From the NCBI RefSeq assembly GCF_963676685.1, contig NC_092347.1, positions 55,118,001-55,182,000 of the forward strand: a DNA stretch of 64,000 nucleotides. Direction: 5' to 3'. The notes under the pieces were generated by a model that worked only from the letters and a program-made list of their open reading frames with translations, ran no database searches and was not told where the DNA came from. Below, piece after piece: positions 17,521 to 53,594 of this stretch; the stretch's first letter is position 1; each line of letters opens with the position of its first letter. Position numbers and translations under genes: made by a program. The DNA comes from Mytilus edulis. Lineage: Eukaryota.

Positions 17521-18572
17521 ACAGGTGTGTTCCAGATATTTCATAAACGGTTAAATGATGATGGGTCTACCTTCCAAAACACATGAAGTCGGACCAGATA
17601 TAGAGAACGTCGTTTGGCTCGAATTTTACTTTTCTGTGGACTGGTTTATTAGTTGCTTTTTTTTTTATACCATAGTGTTGTTTGTCCTTCTTGTCCCAAT
17701 AGGGTTTTGTTTTCCTTGGTATCTTATTCCTTTGTATATACTTAATCTTTGTATTTGAATTATATTTTTTTCATAATTGAAACGATTTTGCCCCAGGATT
17801 TTGCGGATCAATACAGTGATATATATATATACAGATCCTACGTTTGATCAGAAAATCGATATATTTCGAATAGACAACCGGAAGTCGTTGAGTTTGAACA
17901 AATGTGACAGACAGCTGATTGATAAAAAGTCACGAATGTCTTATTCTACGAATGGGTTTTGAAGTTATGACGGATGTATTATCTAAATGAAAACCTTGGC
18001 ACAAATTTATAAATGCAGACATTGTCAATGTAATTATGAAAGTAAACACCAAATTATTAATTGCCATGTAGAAAATGTCAAAACTATGTGAAAATAAATA
18101 TTGGTTCGCGTGCTTTTATATGATACAATATTGCAGTCAATATTTTCAACTTGTTCATGGTGACCATTTGGCTTTTGGTGATATTAATTTATTATATAAA
18201 TTGTTTGTTTTAATTGTTTATTATGATGGGGGAAAAAAGAAGATACAAATTAAAGTTGCTTGTAAAAAAACCTTTGATCTTAAACAAAATACCATAACTT
18301 AGAAAAATGAATAAACTTTAAGATGTTTTGCATCAATTGTATTAGTCTAGGATATGAGTTGTTTTACACAATAATGCTAAAATAAATTGTATTGGTTGCT
18401 TGGCATATAATATAATGCCTTGCATAGGAAAATCAAGAGGTGTTGTTAATAACAGGGGAAAACGATTGAATCTAACAACTTTAAACAAAATAAAATAACG
18501 CTTTAGCAACGGTAGACGCTAATGCTCTTCAACTTCGTACTTTATTTGGCTTTTTTAACATTTTTTTTATTA

Positions 18573-18617
18573 GAGCGTCACTGATGAGTCTTTTTTAGAC
18601 GAAACGCGCGTCTGGCG
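18573..18617 (+). ncRNA. minimal type I hammerhead ribozyme
   Basis: GAGCGTCA-CTGATGA-GTCT(TTTTT)AGAC-GAAA-CGCGCG-TC-TGGCG. Intact CUGANGA/GAAA core; stem I CGUCA/UGGCG; palindromic stem III ACGCGCGU; predicted cleavage after GUC (18612). Confidence 0.85.
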
Positions 18618-19071
18618 TAGATATAAGATTTCAATCCTGGTATCTATGATGAGTTTATTTACAACCACTGGGTCGATGCCACTGCAGGTGGAGTTTTAAT
18701 TCCCCCGAGGCCAAGGTTTCACCAGCCAAATAGTCAGCACTTCTGTGTTGACTTAAGTTATCATTGATATGTTCATAATTATGAATTTACTGTTGAAAAA
18801 ACTTTGAATTTTTGAAATACTAGGGCTTTTCTACCTCAGGAATAAATTATCTTAGCTGTATTTGTCAAAACTTTTAGGAATATTTGTCCTCGATGCTCTT
18901 CAACTTCGTACTTTATTTGGCCGTTTTACATTTTTTGATTCGAGCGTCACTGACGAGTCTGACTACTGTGCTGGTGATACCCTCGGGGAATTAAGACTCC
19001 ACCAGCAGTGCCATCGACCCAGTGGTTATAAAAAAACTCATCATAGATACCAGGAATAAATTTTGTTTTTA

Positions 19072-19115: not shown

Positions 19116-20904
19116 AGAATAAAAACAAAATAAAAAAGGCCAAATAAATTACGATGTCACCATGAATGAAATTTTGAAATAAATTTTAATTTCAGAATGA
19201 CATGAGGTTGCTGTTAGCTGATCAAAATAACGTATTATAATGAAACATACATATTATGCAACTATTAGTTGACCTATCTAAGCTTGGATTATTTCACTTA
19301 ACTCACTAATGATGAATACCGTAGACCTATGGCTGCAGCTTGTTTATGTAAACAAGTATAACAAGCTTATTGGTTCAGGGGTTGAAGTCATAAAACTTTG
19401 CTCAGTGCTCGGAGCACAAAAATCATGCTCGAAACACGAAATCCAGCATTTTGATTGGTTGATTCTTGAGTCTGAGTACAAAAATCGTGCTCGAAAGTGT
19501 TATGACCGCAAGGCCAGGACAACTCCGTCTTACTTTTATTTACTCACAGGGACCATTATATTAACGAATTCGTCTTTCCTCTTTAGATCAAATGACTAAA
19601 TCATCAAATAAAAAAAGCATAGTTGATATGTATGAGCTATGCACTGAAGTATTTACATAAATTATGTGACGAAACACCATAATATTTAGAGGTCACATAA
19701 AAAAAACCCATGATGCTTAGGTGTTATACATACAAAACACTGTATTCGTTCACTGGAGACATTAGAAGTTTTGCTTTAATAGGCGAATGCTGTCTTGACG
19801 CTAATTATCGTTTCTTGCACTTAACAAAGGACAGTTCTTGAAACATTAAACATATGGTTTCACCATTTTTTCTGTCGAGTTAACATTTCTTATCAAATAA
19901 AAAGTTGCCAATTATTCTTAGACAAAGTAATGACTAGATTCCTATAAATAACAGACATTCACAAAGAATGCAATTATTTTATTTTGAAATATTTTTTATG
20001 TAAAATAACGTTGCAAACTTTGACTCTTCTGTCATTTTTTTTAAAGATTAGTTTGCAGTGTCTTAGTCTTTAAAATTTGTAATGCCATGGATCATTTACC
20101 GGAAATAGTCTGGATTTTAGTGATTGATATTCTTAAAGTTCTATCATAATTAGTCTAGTTCTATGTCACCGTTCTATGTACACTGCAATAGCAAAATCAA
20201 ACATCATTTAGTAAATTTGAGTCTGTTTTTACAATTTACAGTGCGTAAAGTTACTGATGAAATGATGAAACATGTATTTAGCTTAGCTGTCAATTGTCGA
20301 TTTTCTATTCATACTTTATTTTGATCTCTGATGACAATTTGATGCTTTAATTTTAAAATAAATTGAATACGCCAAAGTTAGGGTGAAATCTACATGAAAC
20401 ATATAGCGTAATGGTTTGAAGATATCAAGAGGACTTTAATATAAACAAGACTTGATAGGACAATACTCAGTACTTTTGTAAAATATATAGATTAACCGGC
20501 ATAAACCTTACAAGCATAAGGTGTAATCAGATGCTCCGGTAGGGTTGGGTACACTTGGTACTACTAGATTTGTTAATATTCGATATAAGTTTATGAAAGC
20601 CGATCATGTCAAAAACCCGATACATTTAACGCGATAAAATCACATTTAACGCGATAAATTCAGTTTTAACGCGTTTATATAATTTTTAACGCGATTTAAG
20701 CACAAAACTACAAAAAATGACCGAAAATACTTTCTTCTTTCGCCATAACAACGTTTTAAGGCGTCAGATTTTACTCGAAAATTACTAAATGAAATGGCCA
20801 CATGTGTCATAACTTTGTCAATTAACGCAATAAAGTTTATTAATTTTCAGCACATTTTTGTTATCATCGTCATTAATTATTTATCGCATTAAAATAAATA
20901 TTAA

Positions 20905-21220
20905 CGCGTAAAATGAAGGTTTAACGCGTTAAATGAAGGTTTAATGTGATAAAAGAGGGTATAACGCGTTAAAAGAAGGTTACCGCGTAAAAAGATAAGA
21001 AAAATACAACTTTAACGCGTGACAATAATTTTTAACGCGTTAAATGTATCTTTTTCGCGTTAAATGCAACTTTAACGCGTTAAATGCAACTTTAACGCGT
21101 TAAATGCAACTTTAACGCATTAAATGCAACTTTAACGCGTTAAAAGCGTTAAAAGCATTTTTAACGCGTTAAATGCATCTTTAACGCGTTAAATGCAACT
21201 TTAACGCGTTAAATGAATCT
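20905..21220. repeat. 20-bp minisatellite (TTTAACGCGTTAAATGCAAC)n
   Basis: Regular 20-nt period, clearest at 21031-21220. Most units carry the 14-bp palindrome TTTAACGCGTTAAA. Confidence 0.9.
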
Positions 21221-21635
21221 TTTAATTTAATTTCATTTAAGATTACTTTTCATTTGTATATATATGGACTGATCATGTTAATTAAAAGTCCATCTAGATT
21301 TACATTTGTCAACTTGTCTTTACGCTTTGTCTTAAATAAATTTTGTTTATATGTCAGGTTTGTCAGATACTTTACTTTTTTGCGTCTTTTGATGCCTGTA
21401 TCTAACATAAGGGTTTACCATAAACTTTGGTAGTTTGACGTATACTTACTTAAGTCTCTACAAGTGAAGTTTTTTTTTCTGTAGATGGTGTAAACATGAC
21501 ATATCTTTACTATACCTTTACTACATTTTGTACATCTATCAACCATACCTCTGTTAAACATTACAATCGGATATTGTTACACCGCTGTCAGTCAGATTAC
21601 CGAGGCATTTTTTGTTTTTCATTCGAGCGTCATTC

Positions 21636-21680
21636 GAGCGTCATTAATGAGTCTTTTGTAGACGAAACGCTCGTCTGGCG
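21636..21680 (+). ncRNA. degenerate hammerhead ribozyme remnant
   Basis: GAGCGTCA-TTAATGA-GTCTTTTGTAGAC-GAAA-CGCTCG-TC-TGGCG. The core CUGAUGA is mutated to UUAAUGA and the stem III palindrome is broken, so it is likely inactive. Confidence 0.65.
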
Positions 21681-23324
21681 CAAATACAAAATTTCGATCC
21701 TGGTATCTATTACGAATTAATCAGCTAGCAATCGCGTGTGAATTGAGAACATGTTCAAAACAACAGGCTATTAAGAGCATGCATCGAGCATCTAGTAAAC
21801 CATGCCCTATATTAATAAAATGAATCTGTTATTAATGCCCTACCTGTAAAGCTGAAATAATCTCTATGTCCGTCCGTTTCTCTGCCCGTTATTAGTCCTG
21901 AAATTTGTTCAAGGTTATGATTGTCTTTCTGATATTGTTTGATTGTAACCCCATTGTTTTATTTTGTATTTACATTGAGTGATAGATCAAACTTATTCGT
22001 GAAGTGATATGTCATTTGATTGAGTTAAGCCATTTCAGTTGATATTTTAAAGTGTGTCTTTCAACGTTGTGATATAACACTATTGTTTCAAGTTGGATTA
22101 AGGTTGGTGCCTATTAAAACGTTTCAACCCGCTGCATTTGTCCTAAGTCAGGTACCTGGTACCGTGGTTGTCGTTTGTTGATGTGCTTCATAAGTGTTTC
22201 TCTTTTTTTTATAGGTTAGACGTTGGCTTTTCTGTTTGAATGGTTTTACACTTATCTGTTTTGGAACCCTTTATACCTTGCTGATCAGTGTGAGCCAAGG
22301 TTACACGTTGAAGGCTGTAATTCATTCCCGGGTGTGGTAAAATGTTATCGTCTTCATTGGTCATCTTCATGTGTTTGTTGTGGTATGTTTTCATTTGCAG
22401 CACTTGTTTTTGATAGTAAATCGCGCAAAGCGATGCATTCAGAGTCCATGTTGTTCAAGATAACTGTTACAAATAGGACATTTGAGTTTGTATGGTTTTC
22501 AGTTAACACACAGTGTTTGCTATTTTGAAATCTGGTTAGTTAAAGAGAAAGGTTTAATCGTGAGAGGAAGACGCCATGTCATATCTTCCGTATTCTCCTC
22601 GTCTGTAATGTCCAGGACACCACGATACTACAAAAAATGCGAACAGATCATAGTAGTATTTTGTTAGTAACATTATTCCATAACTCCATCCATGATGTTT
22701 TAACGCGTTAAAGTAAGGTATTGTAGCAACGTAATTGTGTTGAATTTAACGCGTAAATGTGATTCATTATGACACATGTGGCCAGTGCGACGGGTATTTT
22801 ATCGCGATAAACGTCTTTTTTCCACCTGCGGGTTAAATCCCAAATTTGATAATTGTTAAAAGTTTAACGCGTTAAATATATTGATTTCTTTACAAGATTT
22901 TAACGCGTTAAAACTGTATTTATTATCGCGTTAAATGTTAACGCTTTATCGGGTTTTTGACATAATCGGCCTTTCATATAAGTTTTCCCCGAGAAAAAAA
23001 ATGACGTCCAAACAAATACAACCAAAAACGTGCAAACACATCGTACAGGCACAAAATGTATCGGAACAACTTTTTTATCATAACGTTCCTTGTGAAGGAT
23101 TAACATGAGAATTAAGAGCTCTAAAAGCAGTACCCTTTGCATCGTTCACCTTGACTAACCATCGAGGGTTTACATCATTGCTGGTAGACTGTTAGACTTC
23201 GATGGTCTCATTGGCAATTTTTCAGTGAATAAATTGATGTAATTTATTGAATTGTGAGATTTCTAAAAAAAAGAAGTTTAAAAGTATTTTTCACAAACTT
23301 AAACTTTAACATATCTTGCACTAT

Positions 23325-24160: not shown

Positions 24161-24549
24161 TAAAATTATAATCCTGGTACTTTTGATAACTATTTACACC
24201 ACTGGGTCGATGCCACTGCTGGTGGATATTTCGTCCCCGAGGGTATCAACAGCCCAGTAGTCAGCACTTCAGTGATGACATGAATATCAATTATATGGTC
24301 ATTTTTATAAATTTTCTGTCTACAAAACTTTGAATGTTTCGAAAAACTAGGGATTTTCTTACTCCAGGAGTAGATTACCTTAGCCTTATTTGGCACAACT
24401 TTTTGGTATTTTGGGTCCTCAATGCTCTTCAACTTTGTATTTGTTTGGCTTTTTTACTATTTTGATCTGAGCGTCACTGATGAGTCTTATGTAGACGAAA
24501 CGCGCGTCTGGCGTATAAAGTTATAATCCTGGTACTTTTGATAGCTATT
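24161..24549 (+). mobile_element. retrozyme-type repeat locus B: one 355-nt unit with terminal redundancy
   Basis: A ~34-nt direct repeat TAAA.TTATAATCCTGGTACTTTTGATA.CTATT occurs at 24161 and 24516 (period 355). Contains an intact hammerhead. Confidence 0.8.
24469..24513 (+). ncRNA. minimal type I hammerhead ribozyme
   Basis: GAGCGTCA-CTGATGA-GTCT(TATGT)AGAC-GAAA-CGCGCG-TC-TGGCG. Intact core; predicted cleavage after 24508. Confidence 0.85.
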
Positions 24550-25001
24550 ATAAGAGTTTTTAGTAAGACTTTTTGGAAATAAACATTCATTATCTGTTTT
24601 TAGAATTGAATTCTATTTCATTTCAAGTCGTATCGAAAAAAAGCAGTACTGTTACACAGAGGAAAGTCCTATAAAAGAAAGGTGAAAGGTACCAAAGGGT
24701 CATTCTTACTTATAAGCCGAAAATAAACTGTCAACGTCATAACCAAAAAAGAAAAGACAAACAGTACCCAAACACAACATGAAAAGTAAAGACTTATATA
24801 TCAACAGTTACACAAACCCCACCAGAATCTGGTTTTGGTTTTGTGTTTTTCGGAATAGTAAGCAGATTCTGCTTCACCTGTGACGACCGTCTTGTTGCTT
24901 ATATAAGTACAATCCCGGTGACAAGTCTAATTTGAATGGTCAAAATCAGGGAAAATATACATTTGTAAACTCGTTTATAGTTTATTTTCATTTCATTACA
25001 G

Positions 25002-25304
25002 ATACTGTTTTAGGACCAGACATTAACATTGCGCGTGAAAGTGTGCAAGTGCAAATAGGACGCAAAAAATTTCTAATCGGTGAATGCCACGTGCAAGGAG
25101 CTGCGCCATTAAACATAACTTGGATGAAAAGTGGAAAACTAATAATTGAAAATGAAAAATTCACTTTGGTTAAGATTATAACAGAACAAAATACAAATAC
25201 TCGTCAGCTGTGGATAAGAGAAATGGCGTTAGAAGATTATGGACAATATACTTGCTCCGCCACAAATTTGTACGGCACGAAGAAGAAAAATGTTTTTGTT
25301 AAAC
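25002..25304 (+). CDS. exon 2: immunoglobulin I-set domain
   Basis: TTACAG| acceptor and C|GTAAGT donor, phase 1-1, 303 nt. Encodes PDI...ECHVQGAAPLNITWMK...LWIREMALEDYGQYTCSATNLYG, with the canonical Ig Cys, Trp and DxGxYxC motif. Confidence 0.9.
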
Positions 25305-25955
25305 GTAAGTATTAAAATTACTTCGAGTATTGCCAAAAAATATTAGAAATAAATGTTTTCCAAATCGTCCCTTTAAATAAATTGAACGTCAATATTACTT
25401 GCAATTTAAATAATCCTAATAAAAGAACCTGAAATTGAGAAAAAAAATATACATGCTGGAATTTTGAAAATGAAACTTTGATGAACGGAAGTTCCGAACT
25501 GCTTTATCAAATTTTTATGAAATTTTCCAATCTGGAAAAGAAGCAGTATTGCTTTTATACTGCTACAATTCCTCTTTCGCAGATTTGGGAGATATCTTAA
25601 AAATGATGTCCTGAAGTATAAGGTACTTATTTTTTGTTATATAAATGGTATTTACATTTAATGTGTTAAATTAAATTTACATTTAATGTGAAAATTAAAT
25701 TCATATTTAATGTGTAAAATTAAATTTACATTTAATGTGTTGGTAAGACACAATTATTTGTTTATTAAGCATTAGATAGTAGTGTAAAAAGTAAACTTTT
25801 AAACTTTAAAGCAATTGCTCGTTTAACTGTATCACTGATTGGGACGAATTGCTTTATTTGGGCTCTTCCTTTTACACTCAGTAATTTATGTAATTCTACC
25901 TCTGTCAACCAGTACAAATACACGAGTTTCGACAATGGTGTATAATAGTGTCGTC

Positions 25956-36500: not shown

Positions 36501-38552
36501 CGGACCATTTTGCTTCCCCAAAAGGACAATACCAATCTAAGTTTGTCTAATATTGGATATATGATCATCATATAGACACCGAAATGATTATAAAGAACTA
36601 TAATTGTTTTCTAAATGAAATAAAATGATGGCTTATGTCTCTGCGAATTGTATGTCATAGTCTGTTCTACTAACGCTGACTTTTTATGTAGTTATGATAA
36701 TTAAGCGATTTGTAAGAGTGCACATGCTGGTTGAATGATAATAATAGACTTTTATGTTGTAAGTCTTTATAAGATCAAGGTCTTAATATACAGGAATAGT
36801 AGAAATCTACGATTAGCAATGATTCATTAAAGAAAAAAATAGCATTCACAAATGAACTATTAAAATGAGTCCAATGTCAGAAGGAACATGTCAAAGTCAT
36901 TTACAAATTGCATTCAATTTATCAATCGAATCTGGATCTAATACATTACTAGTATATATTTTGTCCTATTTCTATATTAACTACATTACTTATTTCTTAT
37001 CAGTATATTTTGAGTGCGGGTAACAGCACAATTCCTAGAGTTAAATGAAGTGCTGTTGGTCATCTGTCATATTTTTTTTCGTAAATTGTTTTGTTATGAA
37101 CGAGGCCGTTAGTTTTTTTTATTGAATAGTTTTATATTATTTATGTTGGGGCATTTTATAGCCGATTATATGGTATGTGTTTTCTCGTTGTTGAAGGCCG
37201 TACTGTTGCCTATAATTGAATACGTCCACTTCATTTGAACTTTGGTGGATAGTTGTCTTATTGTCAATCATACCGCATCTCTTTATTTTTATATGTATGT
37301 TGGATGTGTACTGGAAGATGATTTATCTTCAAATCGGTACTTTAGATCTTTTGTCTTCTGTTGATAAGTTTCGTGCCATTCTGACAAGGAAGCCTTTCCT
37401 ACTATACTTTCAACAGTTTAGTCGTGTGTTTTGCTTTCATACCACAGATATATTTGAGCACCCACAAACATTTTATCCCCGCTGCATATCACGGTTTCTA
37501 GTTCTGTTTTATAAAGCCAGGATCAAATTACTTTTTATTATATGGTTGTCGTTTTTTGCTGTCTGAAATAATTTTTTTCTTGGTGTTATTGATTAAGCAT
37601 ATACCAGTTCGTTTGGGTTTCAACATTTAACATGAGATCTGTCAAAACACGTTTAACCCACCGCATTTTTGGGCTTGTCCCAAGTAAGGAACACCTAGTC
37701 TTTGTTAGTCTTGTGTGCGTGCGTGCGTGCGTGTTTGTTTGTTGCTTTTTTTTTTTAAAATTTGGTTCATTTATGTTACGGAGTTTTGTGTGGTGTTCTT
37801 TTCGCTGAAATTGTGTATAGGGGCAAACCAGCGCGTGCGGAATATTCTTGTGCTGCGTTAAAGTCCAATTGATGGATTTGGGCGGTTTTCTGCTCCATAG
37901 TCAGATTGTTGTCTATCGTAAACGCTTTTTTACACATTTTTCGTTTCCATTCTCAAATCTATCCTATAAAGCTATTATACGATATGGGTTTAATTAACTG
38001 ATGAAGGTCATACAGTTACTTAAAGATGCTTTCAACCATGTTCTTTGTTCCTTTAGTAATGGTGACATGTTCTGTCATTGCCAATCATACCACGTACCCC
38101 GTCTTATCATTTGTAAATTATTGTATTTTCTTCTAAGTTAAACAGAGACACATGAATAAGTAAATATACATTTATGGCTCTGGTTAAATCATTTATGAAG
38201 GAAAAGAAAGCGTTTCATACATTATAATTTTTTATAATTAATTTGTTCTGTTTTTTTTCCAGTTGATGCTCTTCCGATATGGGAGATAGTGAGAATGCGT
38301 CATTTCAAAAGCAGATTCTATGAGAATGTAATCGTAACAACAAATGGAAGTGTTTAACGACCTTGACTGGCTATACAGCCCTCGCACGGTCGGCTCGGTG
38401 CCCGAAGGCGATTGATGAGCATTTAAATATTTTCTGCCGTGGGTCAGGAACAGGTAGTAAGGACGCCGAATGGAGGCCGCCATCTTGGTTTTGGTGAGTT
38501 GATTTTGGTTTTTTACTATTTTGATGTTATTCTTCACAACGGCTGCTTTCAG

Positions 38553-38897
38553 GGCCAATTTGGTCAGCTTGGCAGCCCGCTAACCTCGATGATGGAGTAC
38601 TGGTAGATGAATCGTGGACGTAGTTTTAAAGATGACAGGAAGCGTTATCAGGACCAAAGCCGTGAGGCAGTAAAATGAAGGTCGTATCACCCAACAGCCT
38701 AGGATACAGCCCTCGGACGTTAATCGGCATAACACTCCCCATGATACAATGGTTTTGGAGTGCATGTTAACGCGGGTACGCCAACTCCTACGTCTATCTG
38801 TACGGCATGGATTGGTTTCTGTCATCTTAAGAAGTAAGTCGTTGATCATCTAACAATAAACCCTCATCGAAGATAGCGGGTAAAGGAGAGCTGGCCC
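38553..38897 (+). other. unidentified structured element with nested rod-like fold (ncRNA or LTR-like)
   Basis: Six or more nested complementary segments including G-U pairs. Preceded by a TATA-like box and a 59-nt GT-AG intron; internal AATAAA. Confidence 0.5.
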
Positions 38898-39101
38898 AGC
38901 ACGTCCGTTCAGCTGTAATGACTGAGACGTGACTGATTTTGTGTAATCGTAATCTAAAGCGCATTGCATTAAATAGATGAACGTTCAGCTACGTTATGAC
39001 AATAATCTTAAATTATGTCTGAAAATGAAATCTCGGAAATGTCATATTTATTGACCCTTTCCTGTTTTTAATAAAATAGTACAAGCTTCCAGCATCGTTT
39101 C

Positions 39102-39166
39102 CACCATATACCCACAGGTATATCACCATATACCCACAGGTATGTCACCATATACCCACAGGTATA
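39102..39166. repeat. 22-bp tandem repeat x3 (CACCATATACCCACAGGTATAT)
   Basis: Three adjacent near-identical units. Confidence 0.9.
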
Positions 39167-39995
39167 TGGCCTGAAGCTGACATGTTAATTGTCATACAAG
39201 TACCTGTTCAAAACTAACAATCTTTATCGTTTTGTGAAGAATTGAATTTTTATTTAATATTGTTTCGATTCAATGAATTTTAATACAGTTGGAGAGCTTG
39301 GGATAAAATAAAATGACAAGGCAATTCTATAAACAGCAGTTTAATTTCATTTTATACAAGAATACTGTTGTATTTAGACATATCTTAGTTTCGATTATTT
39401 TAGTCATCAACAAGTTTCTTTTTGACGGCGAATGTAAATTTATATCATCATGGTAAAACGTGTCTTGAAAGGTGCTAACTTTCTAATGTATTGTGCGCAC
39501 ACATTATTCATATATTTAGTTTTAAGAAATAGGTTTTGATGAAAAATCTATGATTTTAACTGGCCGTATCAAGTGGAATTTATTGGTGTATTCTATATGC
39601 TGTTTTATGCAATGTTAAAGTGCGACGAAATGGATGTGCTCCTTTATGATTGTGTATTAAAATAGCCTTAAAAAAGGTTATACGAGTTTTGTTACGAAAA
39701 AGAGCCAAAAGAACCAGTTGAAATGCCACTAGTCACTTGGGGAGTTGTCTTATTGACAATCTGCAATCATACAGCTACTGCTGAACTTTTTTTTTATACC
39801 AAATATGAATAGAAACTTTTCAATCCCATTAATTAAAAAAAATGTGATTGTGTATTGATAAAACACTCAGCTGAACGTGCATCTATTTAATACAATGCGC
39901 TTTAGATTACGATTGCATTCTCATACTTATTTAATATCGGTTATAAGCACGTGATAACAGACACAAACAAAAACTTTGAATATAATTAACTTCAA

Positions 39996-46188: not shown

Positions 46189-47296
46189 AACAAGAGTGCA
46201 CACGCTGAAATGTCTCGCCTTCTATACTAATCATTGATATTATGTTGATAGTCCTATGTAAAAAGCTTAGCTTTATAACAACTGTACCATAAACTTAACA
46301 TTAACCAAGATAACTAAACAAAGACCAATGAACCTTGAAAATGAGGTCAAGGTCAGATGAACCATGCCAGGCAGACATGTACAGCTAACAATGCTTCTAT
46401 ACAACATATATAGTTGACCTATTACTTATAGTTTAAGAAAAATAGACCAAAACACAAAAACTTAACACTGTGCAATGAACCGTGAAAATGAGGTCACGGT
46501 CAAATAAAACCTGCGCGACTGACATAAAGATTATTAAATATTTCCATACACCAAATATAGTTGACCTATGGCATATACATTTTTAGTATTAGATAAAAAG
46601 ACCAAAACTCAAAAACTTAACTTTGACCACTGAACCATGAAAATGAGGTCAAGGTCACATGACATCTGCCCGCTAGACATGTACACCTTACAATCATTCC
46701 ATACAACAAATATAGTAGACCTATTGCATATAGTATGAGAACAACAGACCAAAACACAAAAATTCAACTATAACCACTGAACCATGAAAATGAGGTCAAG
46801 GTCAGATGACACCTGCCAGTTGGACATGTACACCTTACAGTCCTTCCATACACCGAATATACTAGCCCTATTGCTTATAGTATCTGAGATATGGACTTGA
46901 CCACCAAAACTTAACCTTGTTCACTGATCCATGAAATGAGGTCGAGGTCAAGTGAAGACTGTCTGACAGACATGAGGACCTTGCAAGGTACGCACATATC
47001 AAATATAGTTATCCTATTACTTATAATAAGAGAGAATTCAACATTACAAAAAATTTGAACTTTTTTTTCAAGTGGTCACTGAACCATGAAAATGAGGTCA
47101 AGGACATTGGACATGTGACTGACGGAAACTTCGTAACATGAGGCATCTATATACAAAGTATGAAGCATCCAGGTCTTCCACCTTCTAAAATATAAAGCTT
47201 TTAAGAAGTTAGCTAACGCCGCCGCCGTAGCCGCCGCCGCCGGATCACTATCCCTATGTCGAGCTTTCTGCAACAAAAGTTGCAGGCTCGACAAAA
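46189..47296 (-). mobile_element. HINE-like element with six internal ~147-156-bp tandem units
   Basis: ATGAGGTC recurs at 46341, 46488, 46643, 46790, 46936 and 47092. A GCC microsatellite and the TCGAGC..CTGCAAC/GTTGCAG..GCTCGA terminal inverted structure precede an A-run. Confidence 0.75.
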
Positions 47297-51384: not shown

Positions 51385-51936
51385 CTATAATAAAACATGA
51401 AGATATGCATGTTCATCCATTTAAAACTATTTAAGAGTAAGCTAGTGTCCATCACATGATACTAGTATCAGCAGGAATTCTTTAAAAAAAAAATCCCACT
51501 TAATGATGAAAACTACACATATAACAGTTTTAGTTCTTACTTCCAAAAATTTAAAAAAACCTTTTACTGTCACTTAATGAATTATTACATGTTGGCATTC
51601 TTGATGCCATTGAAATTTTATCAACCCAAAAAAACTTCTTCAGTCTTGATTAGTTTTATGAATGTATTCTAAAATGATATTATTTCATAATTCATTTTTA
51701 CTAACTTTTTCTCATAACTACTTTTTGATTAGGTTTTTTTTTTATATAAAAATAATCGTTATTTTCTATAAATACATTTTACATGCATAATTAGTTTTCA
51801 CATTGGAAATAAAAACCTTTTAATTTTTTGCATTTTTAATTTGATATGGAATAATCAACTCAGCTTATTTTTCGAAAACAAAACAAACAGAGAATATGCT
51901 TCAAACAAAACTGCTACAGCAGTTACCTCCCCTTAC

Positions 51937-52043
51937 CTTGTTTGATGTTGCTGAAGTCAGGAGTGAGTAGTAAAATAAAGCTCTGTCTTGAATATCCATG
52001 TCGTCATAGGACATCATCATATTAAACAGAATATCACCAATGT
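51937..52043 (-). CDS. AP5B1: AP5B1 coding exon
   Basis: DIGDILFNMMMSYDDMDIQDRALFYYSLLTSATSNK carries the adaptin trunk-end motif (cf. AP5B1 EDPDGRDHARLYYILL); phase 1-0. Confidence 0.9.
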
Positions 52044-53594
52044 CTGTAATATAAATACATGTACAGTTTGTTATATCATCGATTTCTGAAAAAAAATACT
52101 TTAAGATGTTGATAAGTCGTTCACCTATGGCCATTTTTTTTTTCATTTTTTCTGCAGACATAGCTTTAATTTTTTATTACCCTGTATTGTCAAGCTATGT
52201 TACTCATAATTGTTTCTCAGTCACTAAATGTACGATGTTGTTCCATACTAAAGCTGCTGACACTGTTTGTTTACATTCAAATTCCAATGGCGTCAAAACC
52301 ACCTGATGCATTGGATAGTTCTACCCATTCAAATTGCTCTTTTGTCAATAAGGGGATTTTTCCAGTCTATGGCAATTATATTATTTGTTTGTGTGATATT
52401 GCTTTGAAATAATTTGCAATAATTTGGGGGTTTATTCAACAGGAAACCTCAATTTAAGTCATGACATTCGACAGCAATGGAATTTTGTATGAATATTTAC
52501 CAACGTACATGATGGTCAGAATATTGATCTTGTTATATTGAATAAAAAAAAATATTCTATGAAAAATAAATGTAAATCTTTTTTATCAACCTACTCTTTA
52601 TTCCTAAAAAAATTTATGTCATGAACATCATTTTTTTCATATAGCTTTCCTTTCATTTTGGATGTTGTTTTTTTTGTTAGAAAATCAAGGAAAATGTAAG
52701 GTGCTTGTCATTTTGAAATTCATAAAAATATGATTCGCTTGACTTTTTTTGTCTGCTACTAAGATTAATGACGCTGAACGGAATGTACACAAAGCAATGG
52801 AGGCCAGAAGTGGGATTTTGTGAAGTTCTGAAATGTTTTAGGCATTCGGAAGTCAGGTTTAAAATGGCCATTAGAAAAATGGCATGTTTACACAAACTTT
52901 TGAATATCAATGAAAACGTATCTTTAGAAATGTTTTTTTTATTTAGAAGAGTAGAACAAACGTATTCTGCACTAACTTTGAACGCTGATATTAGCTAAGT
53001 GACATCAATACAGAGTTTTCCCATGTGATAAGTACAAACACAAATACCCAACGAACCAACAAGATGATCGATTTTAGACTACGATAGGATATAGTACTTT
53101 TCTCTGAACATAAATCTTATAGAATGACGTAAAAATATTAAACAATTATTTGTAATGAAGTTTTCACACAGGTTTGTTCTGCAAAATTATTTGTGAGAAC
53201 TATACTTTAAAATCTGACAGCTGCTAATGTCTATTTCTAGAGCTTTATATTTAGAACAAGTGAAACTGATGCAGTTTCCGCCACCTACCTTCTCAGAAAT
53301 GCTTGTAATGAAGTTCTTGAGAAAGATGCAATGAAAATATTCATGGGACGGACAGAATGAAGAATGGATGGACAGACAGAGGTTTAACAGAATACCCTCA
53401 CTTAAAAAACACTTTAAAAGTGGGGGTATAAAAAGCACACAGTGCTCCATGTGAAATCATGTCCGTAAATGTATAAAATAAAACATTAATTGAGGGAAAA
53501 GTCTACTTTACAGTTATTATTATTTGGTATTTAAGATCAAATTCAATCAAGTAGTACTTTGTAAACCATTTTTCTATCATTATGCAGTAATTAC

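Follow-up and report, generated by a model that had tools for sequence, protein, structure and literature searches.

The window analysed here, a stretch of 64,000 nucleotides of the Mytilus edulis genome, carries a short non-autonomous element that is inserted in one arm of a larger host element with terminal inverted repeats. An 11-bp direct repeat bounds the block 38338-38941, and once this insert is excised in silico the host arm matches its other arm at 39869-39925, which reconstructs the empty site. The features of the locus are collected in Table 1.

Table 1. Components of the element and of its insertion site (positions of the window).
Feature	Position	Strand	Basis
Target-site duplication (TSD), left, 11 bp	38327..38337		identical to 38942-38952
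Target-site duplication, right	38942..38952		identical to 38327-38337
Whole non-autonomous element, ~599 nt	38338..38936	-	ends agree among copies; polarity from LINE, truncations and RNA-seq
LINE-derived 3' tail, stem-loop and (TTG)n end	38338..38394	-	match to LINE 3' end
Linker between rod and tail, most variable part	38395..38552	-	10-15% deviation from column majority vs 3-7% in head and rod
Rod-like body with branched tip (fold of the preliminary description)	38553..38897	-	folding; compensatory pairs 38870/38586 and 38827/38630
Internal copy of tail core motif (CGAGGGCTGTAT), hairpin at rod tip	38703..38714	-	motif search
Bulge CCAAUCCA, considered as a template for the 5' patches	38808..38815	-	unpaired in minus-strand fold
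Downstream-promoter-element-like (DPE-like) GGACGTGC, +29..+36	38899..38906	-	8/8 consensus match
Initiator-like start TCAGTC, A+1 = 38934, opening a ~41-nt head hairpin	38931..38936	-	shared start of full-length copies
5' extra bases of the window copy, CAAAA, between TSD and element	38937..38941	-	comparison of copies
MITE-like host element bearing terminal inverted repeats	38319..39925		inverted repeats I1 and I5; SINE within left arm

The element opens with the head hairpin (-16.5 kcal/mol) and closes with the hairpin of the tail (-13.8 kcal/mol), whose terminal repeat is (AT)n or (CAT)n in other subfamilies. The tail core motif CGAGGGCTGTAT occurs in the window only at 38373-38383 and 38703-38714, against 0.36 occurrences expected, and the 12 columns of the second site, at the rod tip, are unchanged in 65 of 85 aligned rows.

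The preliminary description of this DNA had recognised the rod, and its nested helices, including three short ones, are found where it placed them: 38562-70/38888-96 forms 9 pairs (2 G-U), 38575-95/38861-81 forms 18 of 21 possible pairs, 38604-14/38843-52 consists of 7 uninterrupted pairs plus a bulge, and 38629-41/38816-28 comprises 13 contiguous pairs (1 G-U). The 345-nt stretch folds with a minimum free energy of -122.8 on the plus strand (z -4.47) and -117.7 on the minus strand (z -5.04), and in the comparison with shuffled sequences that had been proposed, none of 100 shuffles folds equally well on either strand. Other parts of that description require revision. The unit measures ~600 nt and not ~335 nt, the rod being its middle, and what had been considered a stand-alone novel ncRNA is the body of a dispersed retroposon. 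Structure at the RNA level is supported, although the strand had been read the opposite way: G-U pairs had been taken to favour the plus strand, whose fold contains 13 of them vs 10 in the minus-strand fold, whereas LINE polarity, truncations and RNA-seq identify the RNA as the minus strand. Likewise, the AATAAA reported in an internal loop sits on the non-transcribed strand and is not conserved, being present in only 13 of 85 aligned copies. Rfam gave no match in the whole 64-kb window at the gathering threshold, nor over 38338-38941 at E<=10, and ARAGORN called no tRNA over the element.

Copies were sought in the window's own genome (1.37 Gb). The 345-nt query returned 470 candidate places, and all 40 matches that were scored are near full length at 95-100% identity, while older copies extend the range of the family to about 70-100% (down to ~70%). 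The check for genomic copies that had been suggested thus yields hundreds of dispersed copies in the same genome, each ~600 nt with common ends, and the proposal of a small retro-transcribed element is borne out by dispersed monomers, TSDs of 9-15 bp and a LINE-derived tail. Of 86 distinct full-length copies, 62 have a called TSD of 9 bp or more (mode 11-12 bp), about 6 of these 62 calls looking wrong by inspection and inflating the patch lengths given below. The left 67 nt of the element return 1037 candidates vs 350 for the right 67 nt, and this excess corresponds to a second family that is common only over the left 57 nt and has variable stops on the far side. Among 30 loci found with a near-tail (3') probe, 25 reach the head, a duplicated pair included, and 5 are without 5' parts; conversely, 28 of 30 loci found with a head probe also contain the tail. 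Equally conserved probes, each present in 61 of 86 full copies, have 143 exact matches for the head and 203 for the near-tail part, which suggests that ~70% of copies are full-length. Losses in SINE copies affect the 5' side, and LINE copies also stop at variable points on that side. Re-insertion into the same target, head to tail, was observed as SINE-SINE and SINE-LINE combinations and as tail-only pieces, often with the same TSD between them and sometimes with different subfamilies (loci L076/L077 at C10:73.208-73.212 Mb, L064, L079, L090, L128 and L264).

This anatomy does not correspond to two other classes of mobile elements. The R region of an LTR, as had been considered, or a solo LTR is contradicted by the TSDs of 9-15 bp, by the LINE-derived tail with its microsatellite end, and by the absence of paired copies around gag-pol in the loci read. 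A MITE was rejected since the arms that pair lie inside the element (38562-38896), whose two ends do not resemble one another.

In 7 of 8 LINE loci the 57-nt tail is 96.5% identical to the 3' end of a 7.3-kb LINE, and the remaining locus matches it over 56 nt at 96.4%. Since the match is to the 3' end of the LINE, the sense strand of the short element is the minus strand. Two copies of this LINE have 7.3 kb in common at 98.6%. In copy L151, the translation of ORF1 shows three CCHC knuckles (Pfam had no match there) and ORF2 codes for endonuclease (APE), RT and RNase H, with a single stop in frame. On the basis of its sequence the partner is assigned to the I superfamily, and its clade is likely Nimb by elimination from the I-superfamily clades of molluscs, for which Nimb and Ingi are named in the part of PMC10294476 that was accessible. 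The LINE starts with (T)CACTC, which resembles the start of the SINE, and the promoter type of the SINE head appears LINE-like. No homology exists between this head and the 5' UTR of the partner (best local match 20/28 nt), and no donor of head or rod was found among the 8 partner-LINE loci and 20 further LINE stretches; derivation of the head from a LINE is not supported by the LINEs sampled. The 1.6-kb 3' UTR of the partner contains tandem repeats of ~118/237 bp in copy-variable number (L151:7700-8290). Another I-type LINE family (L266, L268, L269 and L280) is marked by a structured 5' end rich in GC, by 5' junctions that are precise and by a tail of (CAAT)n, and its copies are strongly clustered on one contig (C11).

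Transcription was followed in two RNA-seq runs of the same study, X21 and X22, about 6% of the raw reads of each being read. First mates over the body lie on the plus strand at about 70-280x vs 1-7x in X21 and at about 60-125x vs 3-22x in X22. Since a spliced ferritin-like gene on the plus strand places its first mates on the minus strand in the same runs, the RNA of the element is the minus strand. The reverse assignment, in which the plus strand would be sense and its GATTG run would form a 3' tail of RTE type, is ruled out by this strand control together with LINE polarity and truncations. In the small-RNA run X24, a 30-nt peak at 38353-38382 is antisense to the tail, and further peaks, in sense orientation, start at 38729 and 38824; all of them begin with U, and we infer that they are piRNA-like. 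Loose read ends at 38390-38393 in X21 and X22 hint at a third family, as well as numerous tail-only copies, with the same 57-nt LINE end.

Full-length copies start with (T)CAGTC, and in 71 of 85 rows an exact GGACGTGC occupies +29..+36. At this position it matches the consensus of the I/jockey-type downstream element at 8 of 8 letters, as given in the accessible portion of PMC1636488. The interpretation that we hold with good confidence is that of a ~600-nt non-LTR retroposon encoded on the minus strand, for which these motifs make transcription by RNA polymerase II from its own head likely and which the RT of the 7.3-kb LINE likely mobilises. The internal initiator and DPE would drive transcription, and the ORF2 protein of the LINE would bind the tail stem-loop and use nicked DNA for priming at the (TTG)n or (AT)n end.

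It is improbable that the element lacks a promoter of its own and that its copies arise by read-through of a few host loci or through RNA polymerase III. Such an origin could account for the few dominant alleles in each RNA-seq run, for the absence of a start peak at 38934 in the X21 and X22 listings, and for 207 reads of X22 that extend past the tail into one specific flank, because of which part of the RNA signal may be read-through or host UTR; the only T4 run on the sense strand would be compatible with RNA polymerase III. However, the copies have a sharp common 5' end at the initiator-like motif with the DPE-like 8-mer at the canonical distance, the two runs differ in their variant sets and agree in strand, and a pattern search for A and B boxes was negative on both strands. 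Given this result and the negative tRNA and Rfam searches, a canonical pol III SINE with a tRNA, 7SL or 5S head was rejected. Even less probable is a body that originated as a captured viroid-like or host structural RNA, whether circular, ribozyme-bearing or SRP/7SK-like, to which a LINE tail was joined. Its size, rod shape and branched tip would suit this origin, as would the failure of Rfam, the examined LINE stretches and metagenome contigs to yield a match to the body, but no Rfam family emerges even at E<=10, none of 30 older loci examined looks like a single-copy source gene, and no end-to-start joint indicative of circles occurs in four runs (6-13% of raw reads, libraries without RNase R). 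The viroid-like nature suggested earlier is not upheld by these searches for joints and ribozymes. A retrozyme was discarded because Rfam reports no ribozyme and fits to HDV, hammerhead, twister and hairpin forms failed, including that of a twister-like stretch on the plus strand; the fits failed on topology.

The persistence of the rod is clearer than its cause. The majority sequence of 13 old copies is 85.7% identical to that of 55 young copies, so the rod persists across subfamilies 14% apart. We consider it probable that the rod has been kept by selection at the RNA level, while a passive, decaying relic of a fold-back duplication or of a captured inverted repeat, carried by the same LINE-mobilised element with no RNA role, is an unlikely but serious alternative. 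A relic is compatible with the 84 pairs that form in the plus-strand and minus-strand folds alike, almost all of them Watson-Crick, and with the variants in at least 3 rows at these pairs, which favour no strand because 12 are compatible with sense G-U pairing, 12 with antisense pairing and 19 break the pair. It also agrees with the greater stability of the old majority in comparison with the young one (-133 vs -117). Against a relic, two double compensatory changes separate old and young copies, TA<->AT at 38870/38586 (7 rows) and AT<->CG at 38827/38630 (10 rows). Moreover, variants common to at least 3 rows are rarer in paired columns (85/259 vs 40/86, p=0.03), whereas private variants show no avoidance of them (p=0.70), these p-values being only indicative since the rows are related. 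Only 5 of 49 substitutions between old and young copies fall in the 96 jointly paired columns, in a partly circular test, and the fold of the old majority (-133, z -7.9) is stronger than that obtained when the same types of substitutions are randomly placed (-95.5 +/- 7.6). The antisense strand has the lower minimum free energy in 66 of 74 copies. The consensus that RNAalifold derived from 74 rows was weak and its covariation term was not favourable, and with two clear double changes the support from covariation is thin. If the rod is indeed maintained as RNA, it might compact the transcript and present the second tail motif, aiding the capture or holding of the LINE protein, a role that we put forward tentatively.

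Of the 62 full-length copies for which a TSD was called, 60 carry extra bases between the TSD and the head (median 13 nt). These 5' patches consist mostly of CAATC, CATTC or CATC units (the top 5-mers being ATCCA, CAATC, AATCC, ATTCA and CATTC) and contain only 75 G among 1121 letters. Copies that are 99% identical to each other carry different patches; therefore, the patches arise at insertion. No patch-like run occurs in the 19 junctions of truncated LINE copies that were listed, of which ~13 are credible, and CATTC and CAATC units are found in one of two TSD-verified full-length copies of the partner LINE; in other LINE families, the junctions of full-length copies look clean. Words of 6 letters cover 701 of the 1121 patch letters vs a shuffled mean of 510, an excess that is confounded by periodicity. 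Telomerase-like templating in cis by the CCAAUCCA bulge found no support, since the 9 of 62 copies with the variant CCGAUCCA show no CGATC and two copies with the normal bulge show CGAT. Since SINE and LINE both begin with CA-N-TC, and 4 of 25 SINE copies begin with CATTC or CAATC, the preferred reading is that patches would result from stuttering on the first bases of the template. On reaching an intact 5' end, the enzyme would re-copy or stutter on the terminal CA-N-TC, leaving CAATC, CATTC or CATC units, a step that seems possible but still doubtful. The added units usually leave a pyrimidine before CAGT and, therefore, would rebuild the initiator. A more ambitious scheme, which we regard as speculative and rather unlikely, would unite both parts: a telomerase-like reiterative step of the RT would add degenerate CA(A/T)TC units and rebuild the untranscribed part of the initiator, and a selected 340-nt rod with a second enzyme-binding motif would contribute to a family in which most copies are full-length and transcribable.

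Among known elements, the closest are the rare LP (LINE-promoter) SINEs found in gastropods and bivalves (Matetovici et al. 2016, PMC4758252). As far as the accessible parts of that paper describe them, they resemble the present element in a non-tRNA head proposed as a pol II promoter, a LINE-type tail with short tandem repeats, variable TSDs, a Nimb connection and a mollusc host. However, their head is a ~70-bp segment like Nimb-17_LMi, of which two rows of supplementary figure S2 are unlike the present head, the present element has no polyA signal on the sense strand, and its partner LINE is identified here; the same parts of PMC4758252 make no mention of a rod body of 340 nt or of repeat patches at the 5' end. 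Similarities extend to the tRNA-derived SINEs of bivalves (V, Meta, Core and Deu, with Nimb or CR1-Zenon tails), for which the available portions of PMC11481361 and PMC10294476 give 35-61 bp of LINE 3' homology (57 here) and tandem multimers with the same TSD between units. The present element differs from them in its head, without tRNA or A/B box, and in a word search three diagnostic 8-9-mers are absent from the accessible part of the curated bivalve SINE library of PMC10294476. The initiator-like CAGT start and the R-G-W-C-G-T-K-Y match (8/8) at +29..+36 are shared with I, jockey, Doc, F and G of Drosophila (PMC1636488), which are autonomous LINEs, whereas here the promoter-like head belongs to a non-coding 600-nt element. 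A CATT initiator is listed among Drosophila internal promoters in the accessible text of PMC2861651. Extra bases between target and 5' end also occur in R1/R2, where, according to the part of PMC2718515 available, they are non-templated, of any sequence and found in a fraction of the copies, both full-length ones and truncated ones; in contrast, the present patches affect nearly all full-length copies, are G-poor and periodic, and are absent from the truncated LINE copies examined. A full-text literature search with four diagnostic 14-mers gave no paper, a metagenome scan with a 21-nt head pattern gave 0 hits, and the element is unmatched in the supplements of PMC11481361 and in parts of those of PMC10294476 and PMC4758252, although Repbase or Dfam may already catalogue the family.

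SINEs are nearly defined by their pol III heads, and SINE finders based on tRNA would overlook elements of this type. Pol II-type LP-SINEs were proposed in molluscs with no partner LINE or test, as far as the available sections of PMC4758252 indicate. The idea becomes directly testable in the present family because it is young (copies at 99-100%) and expressed, its partner is nearly intact, and it carries a textbook combination of initiator and DPE. Moreover, the periodic 5' patches provide dozens of natural read-outs of a LINE enzyme at the end of its template and also inform on how elements with internal promoters keep their first bases.

The window contains further repeats and frames. A dispersed repeat containing CTGATGAG...GACGAAAC (18569-18658, 21632-21721 and 24465-24554) has what we take to be a hammerhead-like core, and Rfam at the gathering threshold makes no call on it. 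Units of 20 bp whose cores are palindromic (TTTAACGCGTTAAA) form an array at 20619-21242, and tandem repeats of ~147-155 bp extend over 46312-47126, with one further dispersed copy at 36850. Finally, two exon-like open frames were noticed, one on the plus strand at 24884-25315 that is immunoglobulin-domain-like by eye and one on the minus strand at 51901-52173 that looks like part of a host protein.
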